Origin: Methanochimaera problematica
GTDB lineage: Archaea > Halobacteriota > Methanomicrobia > Methanomicrobiales > Methanomicrobiaceae
Direction of reading: 5' to 3'
Length of the DNA stretch: 64,000 bases
Assembly (NCBI RefSeq): GCF_032878975.1
Contig: NZ_CP043875.1
Location: forward strand, 734,370 to 798,369
Shown: piece by piece, positions 25,007 to 33,569 of the stretch
How positions within the stretch are numbered: the first letter of the stretch is position 1
Layout of the letters: each line of letters begins with the position of its first letter
Notes under the pieces: generated by a model
Told to the model about the DNA's origin: nothing
The model's database searches: none
The model's input: only the letters and a program-made list of their open reading frames with translations
Position numbers and translations under genes: made by a program

Positions 25007-26494
25007 GTGTCACATTATCGGTGTAACGTATGCAGGGTTTTTGAATATGATTCAGAAAGAGGAGACTCTGTAACAAATATTAAACCCGGGACTCTCCCTT
25101 TGGATTTTCCCGATGATTGGAGGTGTCCGATATGTCATTCAAAAAAAACACATCTTGAAAAACTCGAAGAAACTAAACATTTTAAGAGATCTGTTCATAC
25201 AATTACATGTCCTGTTTGTGGTGCAAAAACTGAAATTACAATTGCAAATCCTGAATTGTCTGATGTGGGGGGTTATCTTGGTGACTGGCGGCGTGGTTCT
25301 GATGAAATAGAAAATTCTATGGAAATCATTCATAAAATATCTGCTAATGGTGAATCAGTTATTGAACCAATGCGATCCCGTAAATCTAACATTTTGTGGG
25401 ATGATATTTTAATTTTGGGTGCACAGCTCAAAAAGATTCCTTTAAACCATAATGCCTTCGTATCAACGAAAACCATAATCGGCCCTAAGGCTTTAAAACC
25501 TCTGATTATTGAAACTCCTATAATAATTACTCACATGTCTTTTGGTGCTCTTTCTAAGGAAATGAAACTGGCACTTGCAAAAGGCAGCAGTGGTGCAAAG
25601 ACTGCGATAGGTTCTGGTGAAGGTGGTATTCTAAAAGAAGAATTTGAAAATTCATATAAATATATATTTGAATATGTACCCAATGGCTATAGTGTAACAG
25701 ATGATAATCTGAAAAAAGTTGATGCTGTTGAAATAAAAATTGGTCAGTCTGCAAAACCCGGCATGGGGGGGGAAATTCCTGCCGAGAAGGTAACTGCTGA
25801 GATTGCTAATATAAGGGGATTTCCTCAGGGAACTGATATAATAAGTCCTGCAAATTATGAGGACATAAAAACAGGGGATGATCTGAAAAGAAAGGTTGAC
25901 TGGCTAAGGGAAAAATCCGGCGGGAAGCCTATTGGCATAAAACTCGCAGCTGGAAACATTGAAGGTGATCTGGAGGTTGCTGTATATGCCTGCCCTGATT
26001 TCATAACGGTTGATGGAAGGCCGGGTGCAACCGGTGCTGCAAAAAAAATTATAAAAGATGCAACGTCTGTTCCTACAATATATGCATTATACCGTGCCCG
26101 GAAATATCTTGATTTTGTTGGGGCAGCGGATATATCGCTGATTATTACCGGAGGGTTGAGGATATCCTCTGATTTTGCAAAAGCAATAGCGATTGGTGCC
26201 GATGCTGTGGCAATAGGGACTTCTGCACTTATGTCTGCAGCATGTCAGCAATACAGGCTTTGTGATACGGGAAAATGTCCGGTAGGAGTTACAACACAGA
26301 GTGCAGAGCTCAGAAAAAGGCTTAAGGTTGATATTTCAGCGAAAAAAGTAGAGAATTTTTTACAGGTTTCAACAGAGGAGCTGAAAGAATTTTCCCGTCT
26401 TACTGGTAATAATGATGTTCATGAAATGTCAGTATTGGATCTTTGTACGACAAGCTCGGAAATTTCAGAAAATACCAATATTCCACACGTATAA
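25007..26494 (+). CDS. Rubredoxin domain fused to a glutamate synthase large-subunit FMN-binding domain-2 homologue (archaeal GltB-like)
   Basis: An N-terminal rubredoxin (CNVCRV...WRCPICHS), then a GltS FMN/Fe-S central-domain signature (TPIIITHMSFGALSKE...GSGEGG...ITVDGRPGATGAA...GGLR). Confidence 0.75.
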   Translation: MSHYRCNVCRVFEYDSERGDSVTNIKPGTLPLDFPDDWRCPICHSKKTHLEKLEETKHFKRSVHTITCPVCGAKTEITIANPELSDVGGYLGDWRRGSDEIENSMEIIHKISANGESVIEPMRSRKSNILWDDILILGAQLKKIPLNHNAFVSTKTIIGPKALKPLIIETPIIITHMSFGALSKEMKLALAKGSSGAKTAIGSGEGGILKEEFENSYKYIFEYVPNGYSVTDDNLKKVDAVEIKIGQSAKPGMGGEIPAEKVTAEIANIRGFPQGTDIISPANYEDIKTGDDLKRKVDWLREKSGGKPIGIKLAAGNIEGDLEVAVYACPDFITVDGRPGATGAAKKIIKDATSVPTIYALYRARKYLDFVGAADISLIITGGLRISSDFAKAIAIGADAVAIGTSALMSAACQQYRLCDTGKCPVGVTTQSAELRKRLKVDISAKKVENFLQVSTEELKEFSRLTGNNDVHEMSVLDLCTTSSEISENTNIPHV

Positions 26495-26627: not shown

Positions 26628-27017
26628 ATGAATTGTATAAATGAAGTCCCGACTCCTGAAAATTTTGATGCTATTATAAAATATCTGCCTGTTCTGGAGG
26701 ATATGTCAATATATGATAATAACAGGGATGAAATAGAAAAAAATGGCAGTTGCGATGAAATACTGGATCTTGTAAAATGCCTTTATTATAATAACTGGCT
26801 AATCAACTCGCGATGGCAGGAATGGACGTCTGAAGCTGAATTATATTTTGGCAAACCTGAATTATTGAATGATGCCGGCATTGAATCTTTAAGAAGAATT
26901 TTGACAGTCCATGTAAGGATTGATCGTTTATTCCCTGGTGAAATTGCAGACCTGATTAAGAGGGGTTATCTACTTTGCATAATTAGAAGAATATCCAGTT
27001 TGAAAGATTCAAATTAA
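26628..27017 (+). CDS. Hypothetical protein
   Basis: ORF with coding-like composition and no recognised motif. Confidence 0.35.
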   Translation: MNCINEVPTPENFDAIIKYLPVLEDMSIYDNNRDEIEKNGSCDEILDLVKCLYYNNWLINSRWQEWTSEAELYFGKPELLNDAGIESLRRILTVHVRIDRLFPGEIADLIKRGYLLCIIRRISSLKDSN

Positions 27018-27243
27018 AATAAAAATTAATATAATATTTTTAAAGCCCATGTAATGAATAAAATCTTATTTTGGTATGTAATTAAAAATCTGAACCTGTT
27101 AAATTTTCTTCACCTTGTTACAATTTAATCCGTTAATTATACTTTATTTTGAACCATACCTTCAATATATGCCTTTAATTTATGCATTGCATATTCGAGT
27201 TGCATTTAGAAATTATTATAGGCAAAAAAAAGCGAAATCTTTT

Positions 27244-27588
27244 ATGAAAAAAATTGCATTAGCTATTGGTGCTTTTATGATGATTGCTGCAACTCTTTTC
27301 GTTGCAGGCTGCATGGGTCCTGATCCTATTGTTGGTCAGTGGAAAGAATACTCAATTCCTCTTGTATCGATTGAATCAAATTTTTATGAGGATGGAACAT
27401 TCATGCTCTCTGTAAATGGTGTCGGAACAGAGGGTAAGTGGATAAATAAGGAAAAAAACCTTTATGATCTTGACTTTGGGGTTGGCAATCCAATCACCGG
27501 CAGAGTCAGTGATGATGGCAAAAAATTGACTTTCGAGTATGAAATTCTTAGTAAAAATATTGGACTTTCACTTGAAAAAATGCCGTGA
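27244..27588 (+). CDS. Small secreted lipoprotein-like protein
   Basis: A signal peptide with a lipobox-like Cys (MKKIALAIGAFMMIAATLFVAGC). The start is an internal Met of ORF 27115-27588. Confidence 0.5.
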   Translation: MKKIALAIGAFMMIAATLFVAGCMGPDPIVGQWKEYSIPLVSIESNFYEDGTFMLSVNGVGTEGKWINKEKNLYDLDFGVGNPITGRVSDDGKKLTFEYEILSKNIGLSLEKMP

Positions 27589-27663: not shown

Positions 27664-28017
27664 ATGAAAGTATGGATCATATCTGTTCTTATTCTTATAT
27701 TCTCATTAAGTGTGTTGATTTCCGGATGTACTGCTCAAAATGAGGTTGTTTATGATCAAACAGTCACTATACCTGATGGTCAGGATATCGAATATGATCT
27801 CCTGCAGGGAACTTACAAGATAACGATCACATCTGACACTGATATTGATATACTCTTTGATACTGCATCAAATTATGATGAAAAAGGTACAAAGAGCTTT
27901 AGCAAAGATGTTGTCCTGAATGGCGATACTAAAATGACTGTAAAAAACTGGGCATTAATTGGTCTTGGTTCTGAAGCTATTGTTCAGGTTCTGGTTGTAA
28001 AGAATCCTACTAATTAA
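27664..28017 (+). CDS. Small secreted protein
   Basis: A signal peptide with a Cys (VLISGC) followed by a beta-rich domain. Confidence 0.5.
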   Translation: MKVWIISVLILIFSLSVLISGCTAQNEVVYDQTVTIPDGQDIEYDLLQGTYKITITSDTDIDILFDTASNYDEKGTKSFSKDVVLNGDTKMTVKNWALIGLGSEAIVQVLVVKNPTN

Positions 28018-28090
28018 ATTCAAAAATTTTATATCTTTGTGCTTAAAGTCAACTTCAAAAAGTTTATTTACTAATTAAAAATAAATTTAT

Positions 28091-28861
28091 TTGATGTCAA
28101 ATTTTGCATGCCCAAAGTGTGGTGCGCCAGTGAATGTCGATACAGGCATTCATTTTTTAAAGTGCAAATACTGTGATACTACGGTTTTTGTTGACAGAAG
28201 TGGCATTATGTTTTACTATGCCCTTCCTTTTTTCATTGACGATGAAAAGGCAAAAGGTGTATTCCGCAGATGGACTGCAAATGCTCAGGTTGACAAGGAA
28301 CTTGAAACAAAAGGTAAAATTTTAAGCATAGATAAGCAGTATTTCCCTGTTTATCAGTTTAAGAGGGATGAAAACGGAAAAGAGAAGATATATGTAAAGC
28401 CTGCCAAAGGGACAGTTCTTCCCGGAATGAATAAACTGATTATTCCCGGTGGCGACATAAAAATCTTTGATTCATCGTTTAATCCCGGAAATGCAAAAGT
28501 TCTTGATGTTGATTTTGGCATGGATGCTTACCTTCCGGAAATTTCCGGTGAAGGAAAAGAGCAGGCACTTGTTTACTTTCCTATCTATGAGGTTTCGTAT
28601 GAATTCAATGGTGAAACTTACAAGGCTGTCATCGATGGATCTTCAGGTAAAGTCTACGCTTCAAATTATCCTACGCGGTCATCAGTTCCATATGGACTTG
28701 TAGCATTTGGAGGATTCGGTCTTGCTTTTGTTGGAGGATTTCTTGGAATTACAGTGTCTGTAATATTCTATGTTCTTGTTGCATTTGCTTTCTTCTTAGG
28801 CTATTATTTTGGAAACAAGGTTACCAAAAAGGTTACATCTGAAAAATCAGGGGTGATTTAA
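28091..28861 (+). CDS. Zinc-ribbon membrane protein, paralogue A (YdjG-like?)
   Basis: An N-terminal CPKCG...CKYC zinc ribbon, a repeated Y-x-P-[FIL]-[WY] motif and AVIDGSSGKV, and two C-terminal TM helices. Confidence 0.65.
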   Translation: MMSNFACPKCGAPVNVDTGIHFLKCKYCDTTVFVDRSGIMFYYALPFFIDDEKAKGVFRRWTANAQVDKELETKGKILSIDKQYFPVYQFKRDENGKEKIYVKPAKGTVLPGMNKLIIPGGDIKIFDSSFNPGNAKVLDVDFGMDAYLPEISGEGKEQALVYFPIYEVSYEFNGETYKAVIDGSSGKVYASNYPTRSSVPYGLVAFGGFGLAFVGGFLGITVSVIFYVLVAFAFFLGYYFGNKVTKKVTSEKSGVI

Positions 28862-29875
28862 TTGAGTGAACGAATTGTTTTCGGGATGAATTGTCCTTCC
28901 TGTGGAGGAAGGGTTGAGGTTGAAGAAGGGGAACAGCTTGTGCTTTGCCCTTTCTGCCATAGTGCTCATTCGCTTGAAAGTAAGGATGGAATATCCAAGT
29001 TCATGTACAAAATTGTTATTGACAAAGACGAGGCTCTAAAAACAGTCAAATACTGGTTTACAAACAATTTTAAAGCACGTGATCTGCCTGAAAAAGGAGA
29101 AATCACAGAAGTGTATTCTGTTTATCTCCCGTTCTGGCGTCTTTTTGGAAGAGGTAAAGCCATTGTCTGCGGTTATTCCGAGGACAAGGATGATGAGGGA
29201 CATAAAAGTAAAACCAATTACAACAATATCTGGGATAGTGATTATGTCTATACGCAGATTGCATGTGATGCGGGGGACATAGGTGTTTCATATCTGAGAA
29301 ATCTTAAGGGAGAGATTATTCCCTATGAAGAGGAGGAGATTCCTACTTTTGAGGCTACAGAGTCAAAGACAGATGCAGAAGAGGCAGGAAAGATTAAAAT
29401 TCAGGATCTAACATATCAAAATGGAAAGGGTAACATTGAAAAAGTAACTTTTTCAAAGGTTTTTGTTGATACAAAGGCATTTGAGTTGATTTTTTATCCT
29501 TTATGGGTCGTAAGGTACGACTATTTTGAAAAAGATTATTTTGCAGTGATCGATGGAGTCACGGGAGATGTTTTATCCGGAAGAGCACCCGGAGATCCTT
29601 ATTATCAGAGTCTTTCAATCGGTGCAGGTGGTTCTATTGGCGGTTTAATAACAGGCATAGGTCTTGGATATTCGCTATTGGAAGGAAGTGGTCTTTTTGT
29701 AGCAACGTCAATTGTTGGCCTTTCTGTTTTATATCTCTGCTATAATCAGTTCAGATATAAATCTGAGATTATATCCGGTGATCTTCAGCAGCCATCCTTT
29801 AATCTGTTTAAAAAAGCTGCAAATGCATCTCCTTACGGACAACAGAATAATGTTGAAATTGTATTGAGGAAATAA
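28862..29875 (+). CDS. Zinc-ribbon membrane protein, paralogue B
   Basis: A CPSCGG...CPFCHS ribbon, YLPFW / FYPLW motifs, AVIDGVTGDV, and C-terminal TM helices. The start may be the ATG at 28886. Confidence 0.65.
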   Translation: MSERIVFGMNCPSCGGRVEVEEGEQLVLCPFCHSAHSLESKDGISKFMYKIVIDKDEALKTVKYWFTNNFKARDLPEKGEITEVYSVYLPFWRLFGRGKAIVCGYSEDKDDEGHKSKTNYNNIWDSDYVYTQIACDAGDIGVSYLRNLKGEIIPYEEEEIPTFEATESKTDAEEAGKIKIQDLTYQNGKGNIEKVTFSKVFVDTKAFELIFYPLWVVRYDYFEKDYFAVIDGVTGDVLSGRAPGDPYYQSLSIGAGGSIGGLITGIGLGYSLLEGSGLFVATSIVGLSVLYLCYNQFRYKSEIISGDLQQPSFNLFKKAANASPYGQQNNVEIVLRK

Positions 29876-29877
29876 TT

Positions 29878-30465
29878 ATGGTGTCCTTAAAGACTCTTAA
29901 ATGCACAAACTGTGGAAATCCTCTGACTTCAAAAGAAAAGGATAAAATCTTTGTTTGCAGTAAATGTCAGAATATCATGGAATTTCTGGATGGGGACGTC
30001 AAAAAGGTTGAAAGTACCATTGCACGTTTTAATAAGTCCGGAAACTCAGAGAAGGTTTACATGCCGTTCTGGGTGGTAAATACTGACATAAAGGTAAACT
30101 CAGAGAAGATTGTCGGCGGAAGGGTGATGAGATTTTTGAAAAGTGAGAAAAAAATGTCTGGGAACCAGGATCTTTATGTATGTGCCGCAGACATATCTCC
30201 TGATATTGTAAAGGGATGGAATGTTGAATTCACACTTCGGCCTCCTGCAATAGAGGAGGAGGACAATTTTCAGGGAATCCCCCGTGTGCCTGCATTTATC
30301 GACAATCATGGTGCAAAACAGCATTCCGAGTTTATGTTTCTGAGACATGAAGCTGAAATATCGGGTACACTGCAGAAGATAGACTACGATTTTAACATAA
30401 ATTCTTATAGAATTGTTTATGTACCGTTTTATAAAAATAAAAATAAATATCAGGTAGGAATTTAA
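29878..30465 (+). CDS. Zinc-ribbon protein, paralogue C (soluble)
   Basis: A CTNCGN...CSKCQN ribbon with YMPFW / YVPFY motifs and no TM segment. Confidence 0.6.
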   Translation: MVSLKTLKCTNCGNPLTSKEKDKIFVCSKCQNIMEFLDGDVKKVESTIARFNKSGNSEKVYMPFWVVNTDIKVNSEKIVGGRVMRFLKSEKKMSGNQDLYVCAADISPDIVKGWNVEFTLRPPAIEEEDNFQGIPRVPAFIDNHGAKQHSEFMFLRHEAEISGTLQKIDYDFNINSYRIVYVPFYKNKNKYQVGI

Positions 30466-30479
30466 AGAGGTTTATTATT

Positions 30480-30815
30480 ATGAATGAAGATGACAAGCGT
30501 TTTCAAATGGGCTGGGGTGCAGTTGCCCTCATGTTCGGTGTATCGTTATTAGTCGGATGGTTTTCCAACTGGGATATGAATTATACTGTTGCTGTATTCT
30601 TCCTTGGTCTTGCAATGATCCTTGGGGTAATGGCATTTGGTATAGGTGAGAAAAACATTTATCTTATGGGTTTTTCCGGATTATTGGGATTTATTGGGGT
30701 TGTTTCAATACTGACACGTCCGGCAGGGCCTGATGTTCCTATTGCCCCCCTGTTTGGAGGGATTGTTGTAGGAGCAGCTCTTGCATTTATGGTGTATACC
30801 TATTCCAGAAAATAA
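30480..30815 (+). CDS. Small integral membrane protein (3 TM)
   Basis: Hydrophobic helices. It is tightly linked within the zinc-ribbon/SPFH cluster. Confidence 0.55.
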   Translation: MNEDDKRFQMGWGAVALMFGVSLLVGWFSNWDMNYTVAVFFLGLAMILGVMAFGIGEKNIYLMGFSGLLGFIGVVSILTRPAGPDVPIAPLFGGIVVGAALAFMVYTYSRK

Positions 30816-30854: not shown

Positions 30855-31391
30855 ATGGCTGATATGAGAGATCGCGTTAAAAAGGACCGTGGTCTGATAA
30901 AAAATATTGAACTTGCAATTCCTGGTTTTCGTGGTTACAGAAAACGGGAGGATTTACGCATTGCTGACAGCATGCTCCGCCTTCAACTTGCAGACAAACT
31001 AAAAGAAGAAGTAAAACTTCCTTTGGAGGGTGCAAAGGAGGCAGTTGCAAAGGCGCTCAATCTTGATATGATGAATGATATTAGCGATCTTGTTTCAAAG
31101 GTTGATACTCTTGAAGCAAAAATCAGGCATGCAGAACAGGGTTATTCCGGAATATCCCCAAATTACAGAATAGGAGAGGACCAGCTTAATGTTCTATATG
31201 AATATGACTGGAGTATGATCAATATTGTTCACGATTTGGCAGATGATTCTCAGAATATTCTTTCAAGTGCTGAGTTTGAGGATTTTTCAGGTATGAAATC
31301 CGAATGTATTAAAGTGAAGAAAAAAGTTCTTGAATTTGGAAAAACCTTCAGGGACAGACACAATACAATGGCAGACCTGGGAGCTTTTTAG
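30855..31391 (+). CDS. Coiled-coil protein of unknown function (possible PspA/ESCRT-III-like partner, unverified)
   Basis: Predicted helical and charged. It is preceded by a GGAGG SD and ends 1 nt before the SPFH gene. Confidence 0.5.
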   Translation: MADMRDRVKKDRGLIKNIELAIPGFRGYRKREDLRIADSMLRLQLADKLKEEVKLPLEGAKEAVAKALNLDMMNDISDLVSKVDTLEAKIRHAEQGYSGISPNYRIGEDQLNVLYEYDWSMINIVHDLADDSQNILSSAEFEDFSGMKSECIKVKKKVLEFGKTFRDRHNTMADLGAF

Positions 31392-32609
31392 ATGGGATTT
31401 TTTAAGAAAAGACCGGATTATCATGGCGGTGATGACATTGCTGGTGCTGATTCAAGAAAAGGATTTTACTGGGTCGAAGAGAACAAAGGAGATAACCTGA
31501 TCTGGAGACTTCCTAGAAATGTCCGGTGGAATGACAATGTAATGGTCAGGGAAGATGAATATGGTATTTTTTTCCGTGACGGAAAAGCAATGCAGGTATT
31601 TGATCGTCCTGACAGGTATGCACTTACATCTCAGAACATCACAGGTCTTCAGACCCTTAGCAAATCCGTTGTTGGTGTTGCACAGATTGGTGAGTTTTAC
31701 TGGGCTCAGAAGCGTGAATTCCGTTCAAATTTTGGAACATCAGAGCCACTGAGTTTTCGTGATACTGATTTTGGTGTTGTAAGACTTCGTGTGTTTGGTC
31801 AGTATGCCTACAAAGTTGAAGACCCGATGCTTTTAATCACACAATTTGTGGGAACAAAAGGTATCACAAAGTCTGATGAGATAATTGACTGGCTTAAAGA
31901 CCAGATTGTAATGATCTTAAATGACACTCTTGGGGAGCTTAAATCAAAGCAGAGCATGGGTGTTCTGGATATGCCCGCATATCTTCAGGAGATTGAACAG
32001 ATCTGCATCACAAAGCTTACTGGTGAAACTGAAAGATATGGCCTTAAAGTAACCAAATTTTCAGGTCTTAACATAAATCTGCCGGAAGAGGTTCAGCAGG
32101 CAGTTGACAAGAGAGGCGCAATGTCAGCACTTGGTGTCAATTATATGCAGTATCAGACTGGAAAAGCAATTGAAAATATTGGAGAAGGTGCTGCACAGGG
32201 TCCTGGAGAAGGTGCCGGTTTTGCAACAATGGGTGCAGGAATGGGCGCCGGTTTCTCAATGGCAAATGTAATGGGTCAGTCTATGGGTGGCGGTATGGGA
32301 GGCGTGCCATCTGCATTTGGAGCACAAAATAATCAGCAGCCACAGCAGCCGGTTCAATCTCAGGGCACTCCTTGTATAAAATGCGGACACCAGCTTACCC
32401 CCGGAGCAAAGTTTTGCCCTAATTGTGGTGCATCACAGGCTCCTGCAACAGTGAAATGTCCAAAATGCAACGGTGATGTTTTAGAAGGTGCTAAATTCTG
32501 TTCTAATTGTGGAAACCCGATGGTTGCAAATAAATGCAGCAATTGTGGTGAAGATTTAGATCCCGGAACCAAATTCTGCTCAGGCTGTGGAAATCCGGTT
32601 GAAAAATAA
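31392..32609 (+). CDS. SPFH/Band-7 family protein with C-terminal triple zinc ribbon (COG4260, B. subtilis YdjI-like)
   Basis: The N-terminal ~270 aa is SPFH-like. It is followed by a Gly/Ala/Met-rich low-complexity linker and then three CxxC-x10-CxxC ribbons (CIKCGH...CPNCG; CPKCNG...CSNCG; CSNCGE...CSGCG). Confidence 0.7.
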   Translation: MGFFKKRPDYHGGDDIAGADSRKGFYWVEENKGDNLIWRLPRNVRWNDNVMVREDEYGIFFRDGKAMQVFDRPDRYALTSQNITGLQTLSKSVVGVAQIGEFYWAQKREFRSNFGTSEPLSFRDTDFGVVRLRVFGQYAYKVEDPMLLITQFVGTKGITKSDEIIDWLKDQIVMILNDTLGELKSKQSMGVLDMPAYLQEIEQICITKLTGETERYGLKVTKFSGLNINLPEEVQQAVDKRGAMSALGVNYMQYQTGKAIENIGEGAAQGPGEGAGFATMGAGMGAGFSMANVMGQSMGGGMGGVPSAFGAQNNQQPQQPVQSQGTPCIKCGHQLTPGAKFCPNCGASQAPATVKCPKCNGDVLEGAKFCSNCGNPMVANKCSNCGEDLDPGTKFCSGCGNPVEK

Positions 32610-32665: not shown

Positions 32666-32857
32666 TTAGTCATCATCAGAGTCTGAATCTCCGTAATCAT
32701 CAGACTCTGTTATTTCATGATAGCTTTCTTCTACTGAATCATCATAATCATTCAAAATTTCAGGATTTTCATTTTCATAGCGGTTTTCATTATAATTTCT
32801 TGAACTACCCTGTCCAACAGAAATTTTAATACTCTTGAGAATATCCATAAGTCCCAT
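32666..32857 (-). CDS. Hypothetical small acidic protein
   Basis: A 63 aa ORF with an extreme D/E/S/Y-rich tail. It could be non-coding. Confidence 0.25.
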   Translation of the reverse strand: MGLMDILKSIKISVGQGSSRNYNENRYENENPEILNDYDDSVEESYHEITESDDYGDSDSDDD

Positions 32858-32987: not shown

Positions 32988-33569
32988 ATGAATGATGATG
33001 ATTCTAAAACAGTAAAGTGGACTCGGAAAATTCCACTGACGACAAACACATATGTCCTGAAACAGCTTTTTATTGTGCTTATCATTGCAATGGTTCCTTT
33101 GTTTTTGCTTTTGGTAATTCTGGATCCTGATATGTTATTTGAAATAATTCAGATTGTAGGACTTGTATTTGGAATAATGGTTGTTTTAGCAGTCATTTCT
33201 TTGATTTTGTTGCAGGTTACAACCCGTGGGGGAATTGAAGCAACTTTTACTCTGAATGGAAAAAGTATGCTATATGAGGCAGGGAAAAATTCAAAGTCTC
33301 TCAACAGGTTTACAGCAGCGGGTGCTATCCTTGCCGGTTCTCCTTCTGCACTTGGAGGGAGTCTGATCAATATTTCAAGAGAAACGGAGTCTATGAAATG
33401 GAGAGAGGTACATAAGGTTACTGCTTATGATTCCCAAAAGACAATTGTGGCGGGCCGTAAAAATATGATTAGTCCGATGGGACTTTTCTGTACTGATGAA
33501 AATTATGAAGAAGTGATTAATTTCGTAGAAACTCATATTCCATCAAATGTAATTCTAATTAGGAAATAA
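32988..33569 (+). CDS. Hypothetical membrane protein
   Basis: Two N-terminal TM helices plus a soluble C-terminal domain. Confidence 0.45.
   Translation: MNDDDSKTVKWTRKIPLTTNTYVLKQLFIVLIIAMVPLFLLLVILDPDMLFEIIQIVGLVFGIMVVLAVISLILLQVTTRGGIEATFTLNGKSMLYEAGKNSKSLNRFTAAGAILAGSPSALGGSLINISRETESMKWREVHKVTAYDSQKTIVAGRKNMISPMGLFCTDENYEEVINFVETHIPSNVILIRK

Follow-up and report, generated by a model that had tools for sequence, protein, structure and literature searches.

Three tandem zinc-ribbon paralogues encoded with an SPFH protein in Methanochimaera problematica, a probable triplicated archaeal variant of the YdjG/SamG-YdjI/SamI kind

The 64,000-nucleotide (nt) window analyzed here (Methanochimaera problematica contig NZ_CP043875.1, positions 734,370 to 798,369 of the forward strand) contains an operon of six co-directional genes, A to F, with intergenic spacers of 0-39 nt. 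The first three genes encode proteins that combine one zinc ribbon with two copies of a short aromatic motif, and the last encodes a protein with an SPFH domain. Judging from profile comparisons, A, B, and C are true paralogues that diverged anciently, and A and B are full-length remote homologues of bacterial YdjG/SamG-like proteins. The locus would best be classed with the YdjG/SamG-YdjI/SamI kind, as a new and triplicated archaeal variant, and it also provides evidence for a much larger superfamily of partner proteins.

The open reading frames (ORFs) of A, B, and C were found exactly where the first-pass annotation of the window had placed them, all on the + strand. Gene A (28091-28861; 256 amino acids (aa) when read from a TTG codon) encodes a YdjG/SamG-like paralogue with a zinc ribbon, an alpha+beta domain, and a C-terminal hydrophobic hairpin; its start is probably the ATG at 28094, one codon past the TTG, which gives a protein of 255 aa. 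Gene B (F1737_03915; 28862-29875; 337 aa) encodes a zinc ribbon, an alpha+beta domain, a predicted two-helix membrane hairpin, and a conserved, presumably cytoplasmic tail. Gene C (F1737_03920; 29878-30465; 195 aa) encodes the putatively soluble paralogue, a zinc ribbon followed by a compact alpha+beta domain without membrane segment.

The zinc ribbon reads C7xxC10-x14-C25xxC28 in A (28109-28174), where the cysteines are invariant in 40 orthologues, and its counterparts are C11xxC14-x14-C29xxC32 in B (28892-28957) and C9xxC12-x14-C27xxC30 in C (29902-29967). The first-pass annotation had described an N-terminal CxxC-x9-14-CxxC in each protein; the ribbon stands, and the range given for the spacer does not, the spacer being 14 residues long in all three. 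The two aromatic motif copies per protein that it reported are borne out by pattern counts and by family conservation. In A, the first copy is FPVYQF (residues 85-90, 28343-28360; F84 and P85 are invariant), and the second, FPIYEV (163-168), leads to AVIDGSSGKV (179-188) in a PepSY-like hairpin (28577-28654). In B, LPFWRL (89-94, 29126-29143) falls within the long strand E80-109 of the AlphaFold 2 (AF2) model, and YPLWVV (212-217) leads to AVIDGVTGDV (228-237; together 29495-29572). These two decapeptides are the [AV]-V-I-D-G-x-[ST]-G-x-V element previously noticed after the second copy in A and B. C contains MPFWVV (62-67, 30061-30078) and VPFYKN (182-187, 30421-30438) and terminates ahead of the AVIDG-type strand seen in A and B.

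Of the nine matches to the pattern [FYLMV]P[FILV][WY] in the window's 54 long ORFs (together 18,132 aa), six are in A, B, and C, two in each, and three in the other 51 ORFs, an enrichment of about 45-fold over the remaining window ORFs. Two copies in each of three adjacent proteins, of a motif that is rare elsewhere, are therefore far beyond chance. The motif residues that are invariant or nearly so within each orthologue family are F84, P85, F162, and P163 in A, P90, W92, Y212, P213, and W215 in B, and Y61, P63, F64, Y181, and P183 in C.

Paralogy, already claimed in the first-pass annotation, is carried by profiles built from 62 to 78 orthologues per family and compared by hhalign. A and B align over their full length, both by BLASTP (E-value 3e-12) and by hhalign (99.7% probability, E-value 3.6e-25). 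B and C match with 97.2% probability (E-value 3.7e-11; B6-221 against C4-191), with the ribbon, YLPFW/YMPFW, and YYPxW/VYLPF in register, and the direct hhalign alignment of A with C is confined to the zinc ribbon. Three elements of B are missing from C: a helical insert behind the ribbon, the closing D-G-x-T-G-x-V hairpin, and the membrane segment. With BLASTP, C has no significant match to A or B past the ribbon, which would suit a resemblance that is merely compositional or due to chance, the alternative named at the outset, in which the motifs would fail to align. They do align consistently, and the significant in-register profile matches, the family-invariant motif residues, and the enrichment given above already refute a chance reading, to which we assign practically no probability.

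The ancient internal duplication proposed from the paired motifs is not demonstrated by the sequence: profiles of the N- and C-terminal halves match weakly, over 6 to 26 columns around the motif (probability 39% for A, 28% for B, and 59% for C). The AF2 model of B does show two successive units of a helix and a long beta-hairpin, with one motif in the opening long strand of each, which makes a structural repeat plausible.

The AF2 model of B (predicted local distance difference test score, pLDDT, 80) starts with the zinc ribbon; its first unit has a helix at 55-67 and a very long hairpin (80-109/115-133), its second a helix at 169-189 and strands 194-221, 224-231, and 237-242, and membrane helices 246-274 and 278-299 come last. 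The model of C (pLDDT 90.5) shows the same order of elements with the anchor missing. Toward the C-terminus, A and B have hydrophobic segments and C has none, which, together with the models, agrees with the first-pass proposal that A and B are membrane-anchored and C is not. In A, a hydrophobic, Gly-rich region at about residues 199-241 (28685-28813), followed by a Lys-rich tail, is a putative membrane hairpin. The predicted transmembrane helical hairpin of B spans residues 246-299 (29597-29758) and is preceded by an invariant SGRAPGD. After the hairpin, the tail of B reads FRYKSE..GD here, with a family consensus of FFRHGSEIVEGD and FFRHGSE..EGD invariant in the B family.

As for the fold, Pfam and NCBIfam contain no family for A, B, C, or D. 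PepSY is the sole recurring non-ribbon family among the Pfam matches of A orthologues, with sub-threshold matches in 9 of 40, located over the second motif (best E-value 0.0014). Known PepSY domains are mostly extracytoplasmic. The alpha+beta domain of A, B, and C is weakly YpeB/PepSY-like, and it differs from the PepSY and YpeB-YpmB domains (PF03413; PDB 5boi, 2gu3) in its much longer strands and in a topology that would place it in the cytoplasm. A Foldseek search of the PDB with the B model gave nothing significant (best E-value 0.07, template modeling score about 0.07); pore-forming toxins in the list were rejected as being there solely owing to their long hairpins. A sequence search of the PDB with B returned zinc-ribbon or coiled-coil noise only.

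The link to bacteria emerges from a tblastn search of plasmid records with B, which gave one weak match, on an Enterococcus gallinarum replicon. The gene lies between an SPFH gene (Band_7_1 plus zinc ribbons) and a TPM-domain gene, matching the ydjI/ydjG/ydjH set of B. subtilis, and its 374-aa product contains two zinc ribbons (PF08271), YFPYWRI, LLPVWLVTY...FYYAMNGQTGKVSG, and a C-terminal membrane segment. Relatives in Comamonas, Vibrio, Tsukamurella, and Paracoccus, from four further bacterial phyla or classes, are each encoded directly after an SPFH gene. In hhalign comparisons with these five bacterial YdjG-like proteins, B matches with 99.3% probability (E-value 5e-20) over B8-272, from the second bacterial ribbon to the membrane segment, and A with 99.0% (E-value 2.3e-18); plain HMMER gives 50-65 bits. 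The termini of B. subtilis YdjG, as given by primers (MIISYKCPNC... and ...MGGGF), are consistent with the Enterococcus protein. YdjG has been described as having two zinc ribbons, a YpeB-related domain, and a transmembrane segment, and YdjI as a band-7 protein with a zinc ribbon (PMC11237479). By genetics and two-hybrid analysis, B. subtilis YdjG and YdjH are required for the membrane localization of YdjI and PspA (PMC8581546), and SamI has been proposed to restrain SamGH signaling (bioRxiv 10.64898/2026.02.06.704340).

The archaeal proteins share with the B. subtilis YdjG/SamG type the succession of zinc ribbon, helix, Y-x-P-[FY]-W strand, second helix, [LV]-P-[VI]-W...N/D-G-x-[ST]-G-x-V, and C-terminal anchor, and the bacterial relatives are annotated as 'TFIIB-type zinc ribbon-containing protein'. 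They also share the gene context, the archaeal trio being encoded near a Band_7_1 SPFH protein with C-terminal zinc ribbons, a pairing that recurs in the five bacterial loci. Nevertheless, A, B, and C carry one zinc ribbon, which aligns with the second of the two bacterial ribbons; A and B have a two-helix hairpin instead of a single tail anchor, and C has no anchor; and three diverged paralogues, one of them soluble, stand in place of one bacterial gene. The archaeal cluster also encodes D and E, additional partners compared with pspA-ydjGHI (pspA-samGHI).

F (31392-32609, +; 405 aa) has a Band_7_1 domain (PF13421) that scores 124 bits, well over the Pfam gathering cut-off of 24 (E-value 7.9e-36, full domain), followed by a Gly/Met/Gln-rich linker and three C-terminal zinc ribbons, without membrane segment. 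It is homologous to the Enterococcus SPFH protein, which has the same architecture (E-value 4e-14), and resembles the YdjI/SamI proteins in its SPFH domain, low-complexity linker, C-terminal zinc ribbons, and lack of a membrane anchor. It differs from them in always being preceded by E, a partner undescribed for the Bacillus system, and in having no PspA encoded nearby. E (30855-31391, +; 178 aa) is a helical protein without Pfam family, and its gene is invariably directly upstream of F, often overlapping it. All 34 of the 34 E orthologues match NCBIfam model NF047596 (LIMLP_15305) end to end, with a best E-value of 6.5e-18, and E itself scores 51 bits, far below the curated cut-off of 210 bits; E is therefore a distant relative of LIMLP_15305 and not a member. 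A PDB search with the E profile gave only zinc-ribbon or coiled-coil noise, tblastn of E against plasmid records gave no match, and no E-like gene was found in the five bacterial YdjG loci. D (30480-30815, +; 111 aa), located between C and E, is a small protein, conserved at a length of about 110 aa and with four hydrophobic segments.

Archaeal Meth_adaptin ESCRT neighborhoods encode an SPFH-coiled-coil-zinc-ribbon protein (Makarova et al. 2024, PMC11188069) and resemble the present cluster in this protein, in its zinc-ribbon partners, and in a proposed membrane role. Kinship with those loci was rejected because Vps4, ESCRT-III, and adaptin are absent here.

The conservation of the cluster was assessed by a pattern scan with one genome per species, in which 200 relatives of B were returned and 80 loci kept; these belong to Methanomicrobiales, Methanocellales, Thermoplasmata/Methanomassiliicoccales, and DHVE2. 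Of 83 loci examined, 82 contain A and 76 contain C, and the order A-B-C on one strand is kept without exception, with 4-nt overlaps at 32 of 81 A/B junctions and 38 of 76 B/C junctions. E and F adjoin A-B-C in about 70 loci. Two arrangements are seen: 34 loci have E-F-A-B-C and 23 have A-B-C-D-E-F. No other neighbor is conserved across lineages in the 83 loci, where only lineage-specific synteny is seen. In one locus of the first arrangement (L172, 2934-6962), the genes E, F, and B are broken into pieces, which are probably frameshift errors of long-read assembly and not pseudogenes.

In a metagenome scan with E, we find D-E-F followed by a single YdjG-like gene, and also D-E-F alone. A mixed arrangement occurs in one metagenomic locus with a GC content of 0.685 (L155, 1536-4343), where archaeal-type E and F (223 and 569 bits by hidden Markov model) precede a YdjG-like gene of bacterial type; the encoded protein has two ribbons and shares 38% identity with its counterpart in the alphaproteobacterium Pseudorhodobacter. 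In a further locus (L105, 5151-8412, - strand), D-E-F stands beside three divergently oriented genes (268, 407, and 401 aa) with weak matches to the bacterial YdjG profile (E-values 1e-5 to 1e-7), which may represent another branch of the superfamily.

The wider superfamily becomes visible with the C family. The C sequence used as single query finds only four relatives, and a profile is needed: searched against 1.84 billion representative proteins, it returns 820 clusters at an E-value of 1e-3 or lower and 295 at 1e-10 or lower. The best 150 matches include 88 stand-alone C proteins, 46 tandem C-C proteins of about 400-430 aa, nine B-C fusions, and five proteins in which C is combined with a membrane segment. 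Bacterial tandem C-C proteins occur in Syntrophorhabdaceae and Desulfonatronovibrio. In Syntrophorhabdaceae (L170, 5875-8209), a Band_7_1 SPFH-zinc-ribbon gene is followed after a gap of 2 nt by a 402-aa tandem C-C gene with no evident membrane segment in its product; in a second lineage with such a protein, the SPFH gene lies 600 nt upstream, and in a third none is nearby. What recurs is the pairing of a soluble Band_7_1 SPFH protein with a neighboring member of a 'zinc ribbon + P-[FILV]-[WY]' superfamily, and in the archaeal lineages sampled this SPFH partner is, by its sequence relationships, triplicated into A, B, and C.

One B-C fusion (P0205) is found as an additional copy at an E-F-A-B-C locus of archaeal type. 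An Anaerolineae bacterium (JAFGOG010000625.1; L169, 797-8847) has two sets in tandem, each with an A-like gene ahead of a gene for a B-C fusion (604 and 606 aa, including P0225), and no SPFH gene inside the 10 kb examined. Downstream of the first set are genes for three uncharacterized proteins (320, 116, and 89 aa); downstream of the second is one for a protein of 389 aa that has several zinc ribbons and matches DUF3592 weakly. The C part of a fusion joins the cytoplasmic tail of B either directly or via two further hydrophobic segments, so that C would stay on the membrane side where the remainder of the protein lies. Two other proteins (P0204, 401 aa; P0208, 413 aa) carry, after a C-type domain, a membrane segment and then an additional C-terminal region; the 'soluble' paralogue is therefore itself anchored in some lineages.

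From these observations, we propose that A, B, and C form a membrane-bound, hetero-oligomeric docking platform for F, together with E, with a role in envelope stress. The three proteins would be co-translated from one operon; A and B would be tail-anchored by their C-terminal helical hairpins, with their entire soluble part in the cytoplasm, and C would be soluble. They would then assemble on the cytoplasmic face of the membrane into a hetero-oligomer with one soluble and two anchored subunits. The fixed gene order, the overlaps, the family-specific invariant residues, and the B-C fusions point to this, and the fusions and the tandem C-C proteins beside SPFH genes support a physical assembly. 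The heteromeric assembly with a soluble C that the first-pass annotation suggested thus gains indirect support from gene order, from the overlap counts, and from the fusions; that annotation mentioned neither the operon partners D, E, and F nor the kinship with bacterial YdjG/SamG. The platform would dock, and possibly regulate, the soluble SPFH protein F with its constant partner E, and D may be an additional small membrane subunit. By analogy with SamG/SamH-SamI of B. subtilis, the module might organize or monitor the membrane under envelope stress. Taken as a whole, we consider this reading reasonably probable.

Several observations weigh against it. The link to YdjG runs via the Enterococcus protein, which was identified by architecture and gene context, and not via B. 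subtilis YdjG itself. Against the bacterial YdjG profile, the zinc ribbon of C is all that aligns, and C is tied in via B. In B. subtilis, YdjH and not YdjG is reported as the main contact or anchor of YdjI, and neither a PspA/Snf7 domain nor a TPM (YdjH/SamH) domain is found in the archaeal cluster or its flanks. No score reaches the gathering threshold of PepSY (PF03413), which tells against the PepSY/YpeB likeness. Finally, A-B-C occurs without E-F in some loci (L002) and D-E-F without A-B-C in others (L116, L120, and L166); the partnership of A-B-C with E-F is therefore frequent, not obligatory.

A different arrangement of the same parts would have A, B, and C acting separately, as homo-oligomers or under different conditions, and thus serving as alternative anchors or sensors rather than as one hetero-complex. 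A single YdjG-like gene beside an SPFH gene suffices in bacteria, some metagenomic loci pair D-E-F with one YdjG-like gene, and the AlphaFold 3 prediction cited for SamG favors a monomer (bioRxiv 10.64898/2026.02.06.704340). We nevertheless consider separate action unlikely, given that A-B-C is kept together in the same order in essentially all loci of Methanomicrobiales, Methanocellales, and Thermoplasmatota, with frequent overlaps, that B-C fusions exist, and that the family-specific invariant residues of A, B, and C point to non-redundant roles.

The docking platform also has to be weighed against readings that remove the cluster from membrane maintenance altogether. C has weak PADLOC matches, to PDC-M46A (E-value 6.6e-6) and to HEC-08 (19 of 62 orthologues, best E-value 1.2e-5), which speak for a conflict or anti-phage defense module instead of a housekeeping membrane-stress module and count against our proposal. 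We judge these matches to be driven by the zinc ribbon: PDC-M46A matches one of 62 C orthologues, the matched stretch starts at the ribbon, and there is no consistent full-length match, while PADLOC matches are absent for A, B, E, and F, and the PDC-M46A and HEC-08 models detect none of the bacterial YdjG-like proteins. The flanking genes are, moreover, housekeeping and lineage-variable, with no recurring neighbors of the kind that defense-island genes would give, and a defense role appears very unlikely. Slightly less probable still is that A, B, and C are nucleic-acid-binding or transcription proteins, as some automatic annotations (RPC12/RpoP, TFIIB-type zinc ribbon, S27E) and sub-threshold zinc-ribbon Pfam matches would have it, since the match is limited to the ribbon of about 25 residues, A and B are membrane-anchored, no helix-turn-helix or other DNA-binding domain is present, and the conserved partner is an SPFH protein.

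Extending the docking-platform reading, we may tentatively picture A, B, and C with D as a sub-membrane platform of long beta-hairpins that nucleates a cage or ring of F and E, a PspA- and ESCRT-independent membrane-maintenance machine of methanogens and Thermoplasmatota. More broadly, members of the 'zinc ribbon + P-[FILV]-[WY]' superfamily, which takes in the YdjG type as well as A, B, C, and the tandem C-C proteins, would serve bacteria and archaea alike as the universal, hitherto unrecognized adaptor that connects cytosolic Band_7_1 SPFH proteins with membranes or clients. This joint reading is speculative, and we regard it as somewhat unlikely in its entirety.

The genes around the cluster in the window are housekeeping. 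An AT-rich spacer of 73 nt lies 5' of gene A and contains a TATA-box-like TTTATATC at 28028-28035, about 60 nt upstream of the A start, which is a possible candidate for the archaeal promoter of the six-gene operon. Just 5' of A, two small ORFs (27115-27588 and 27664-28017, +) have a hydrophobic N-terminus followed by ...AGC or ...SGC and look lipoprotein-like or secreted; neither has a Pfam family. Further upstream are a gene for a DUF6508 protein (26628-27017, +; E-value 1.1e-15) and one for a 495-aa protein unrelated to the cluster (25007-26494, +), which consists of an N-terminal rubredoxin domain (E-value 4.7e-15), a further CxxC pair, and a glutamate-synthase FMN domain (E-value 1.2e-94). 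Past F, the next ORF (32666-32857, -; 63 aa) is on the opposite strand and convergent with F; the C-terminal half of its product is extremely acidic (…DDYDDSVEESYHEITESDDYGDSDSDDD), and the ORF is possibly not a real gene. Just past the operon, a 193-aa membrane protein (32988-33569, +) has a sub-threshold, SecG-like match as its sole match.

SPFH proteins (flotillins, stomatins, HflK/C) organize membranes in all domains of life, and to our knowledge the membrane recruitment of the anchor-less YdjI/SamI subgroup is known from one Bacillus operon only. The literature searched holds no description of the archaeal A-F cluster: Psp surveys center on PspA and PspC neighborhoods, and the archaeal ESCRT survey (PMC11188069) covers a different SPFH-containing system. 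From the present locus, the YdjG/SamG-type partner would appear to be part of an old and large superfamily whose members are repeatedly encoded next to this SPFH subgroup, in archaea and in several bacterial phyla. In the archaeal version, two of the subunits would be anchored and the third soluble; B-C fusions occur naturally, and the helical partner E stands in place of PspA and TPM. The C-type domain, which is compact, confidently predicted, and without solved analogue, would be a reasonable target for structure determination. Three sets of archaeal 'hypothetical proteins' thereby gain a testable role, and the cluster may offer a simpler, PspA-free system for asking what the YdjG-type domain does.

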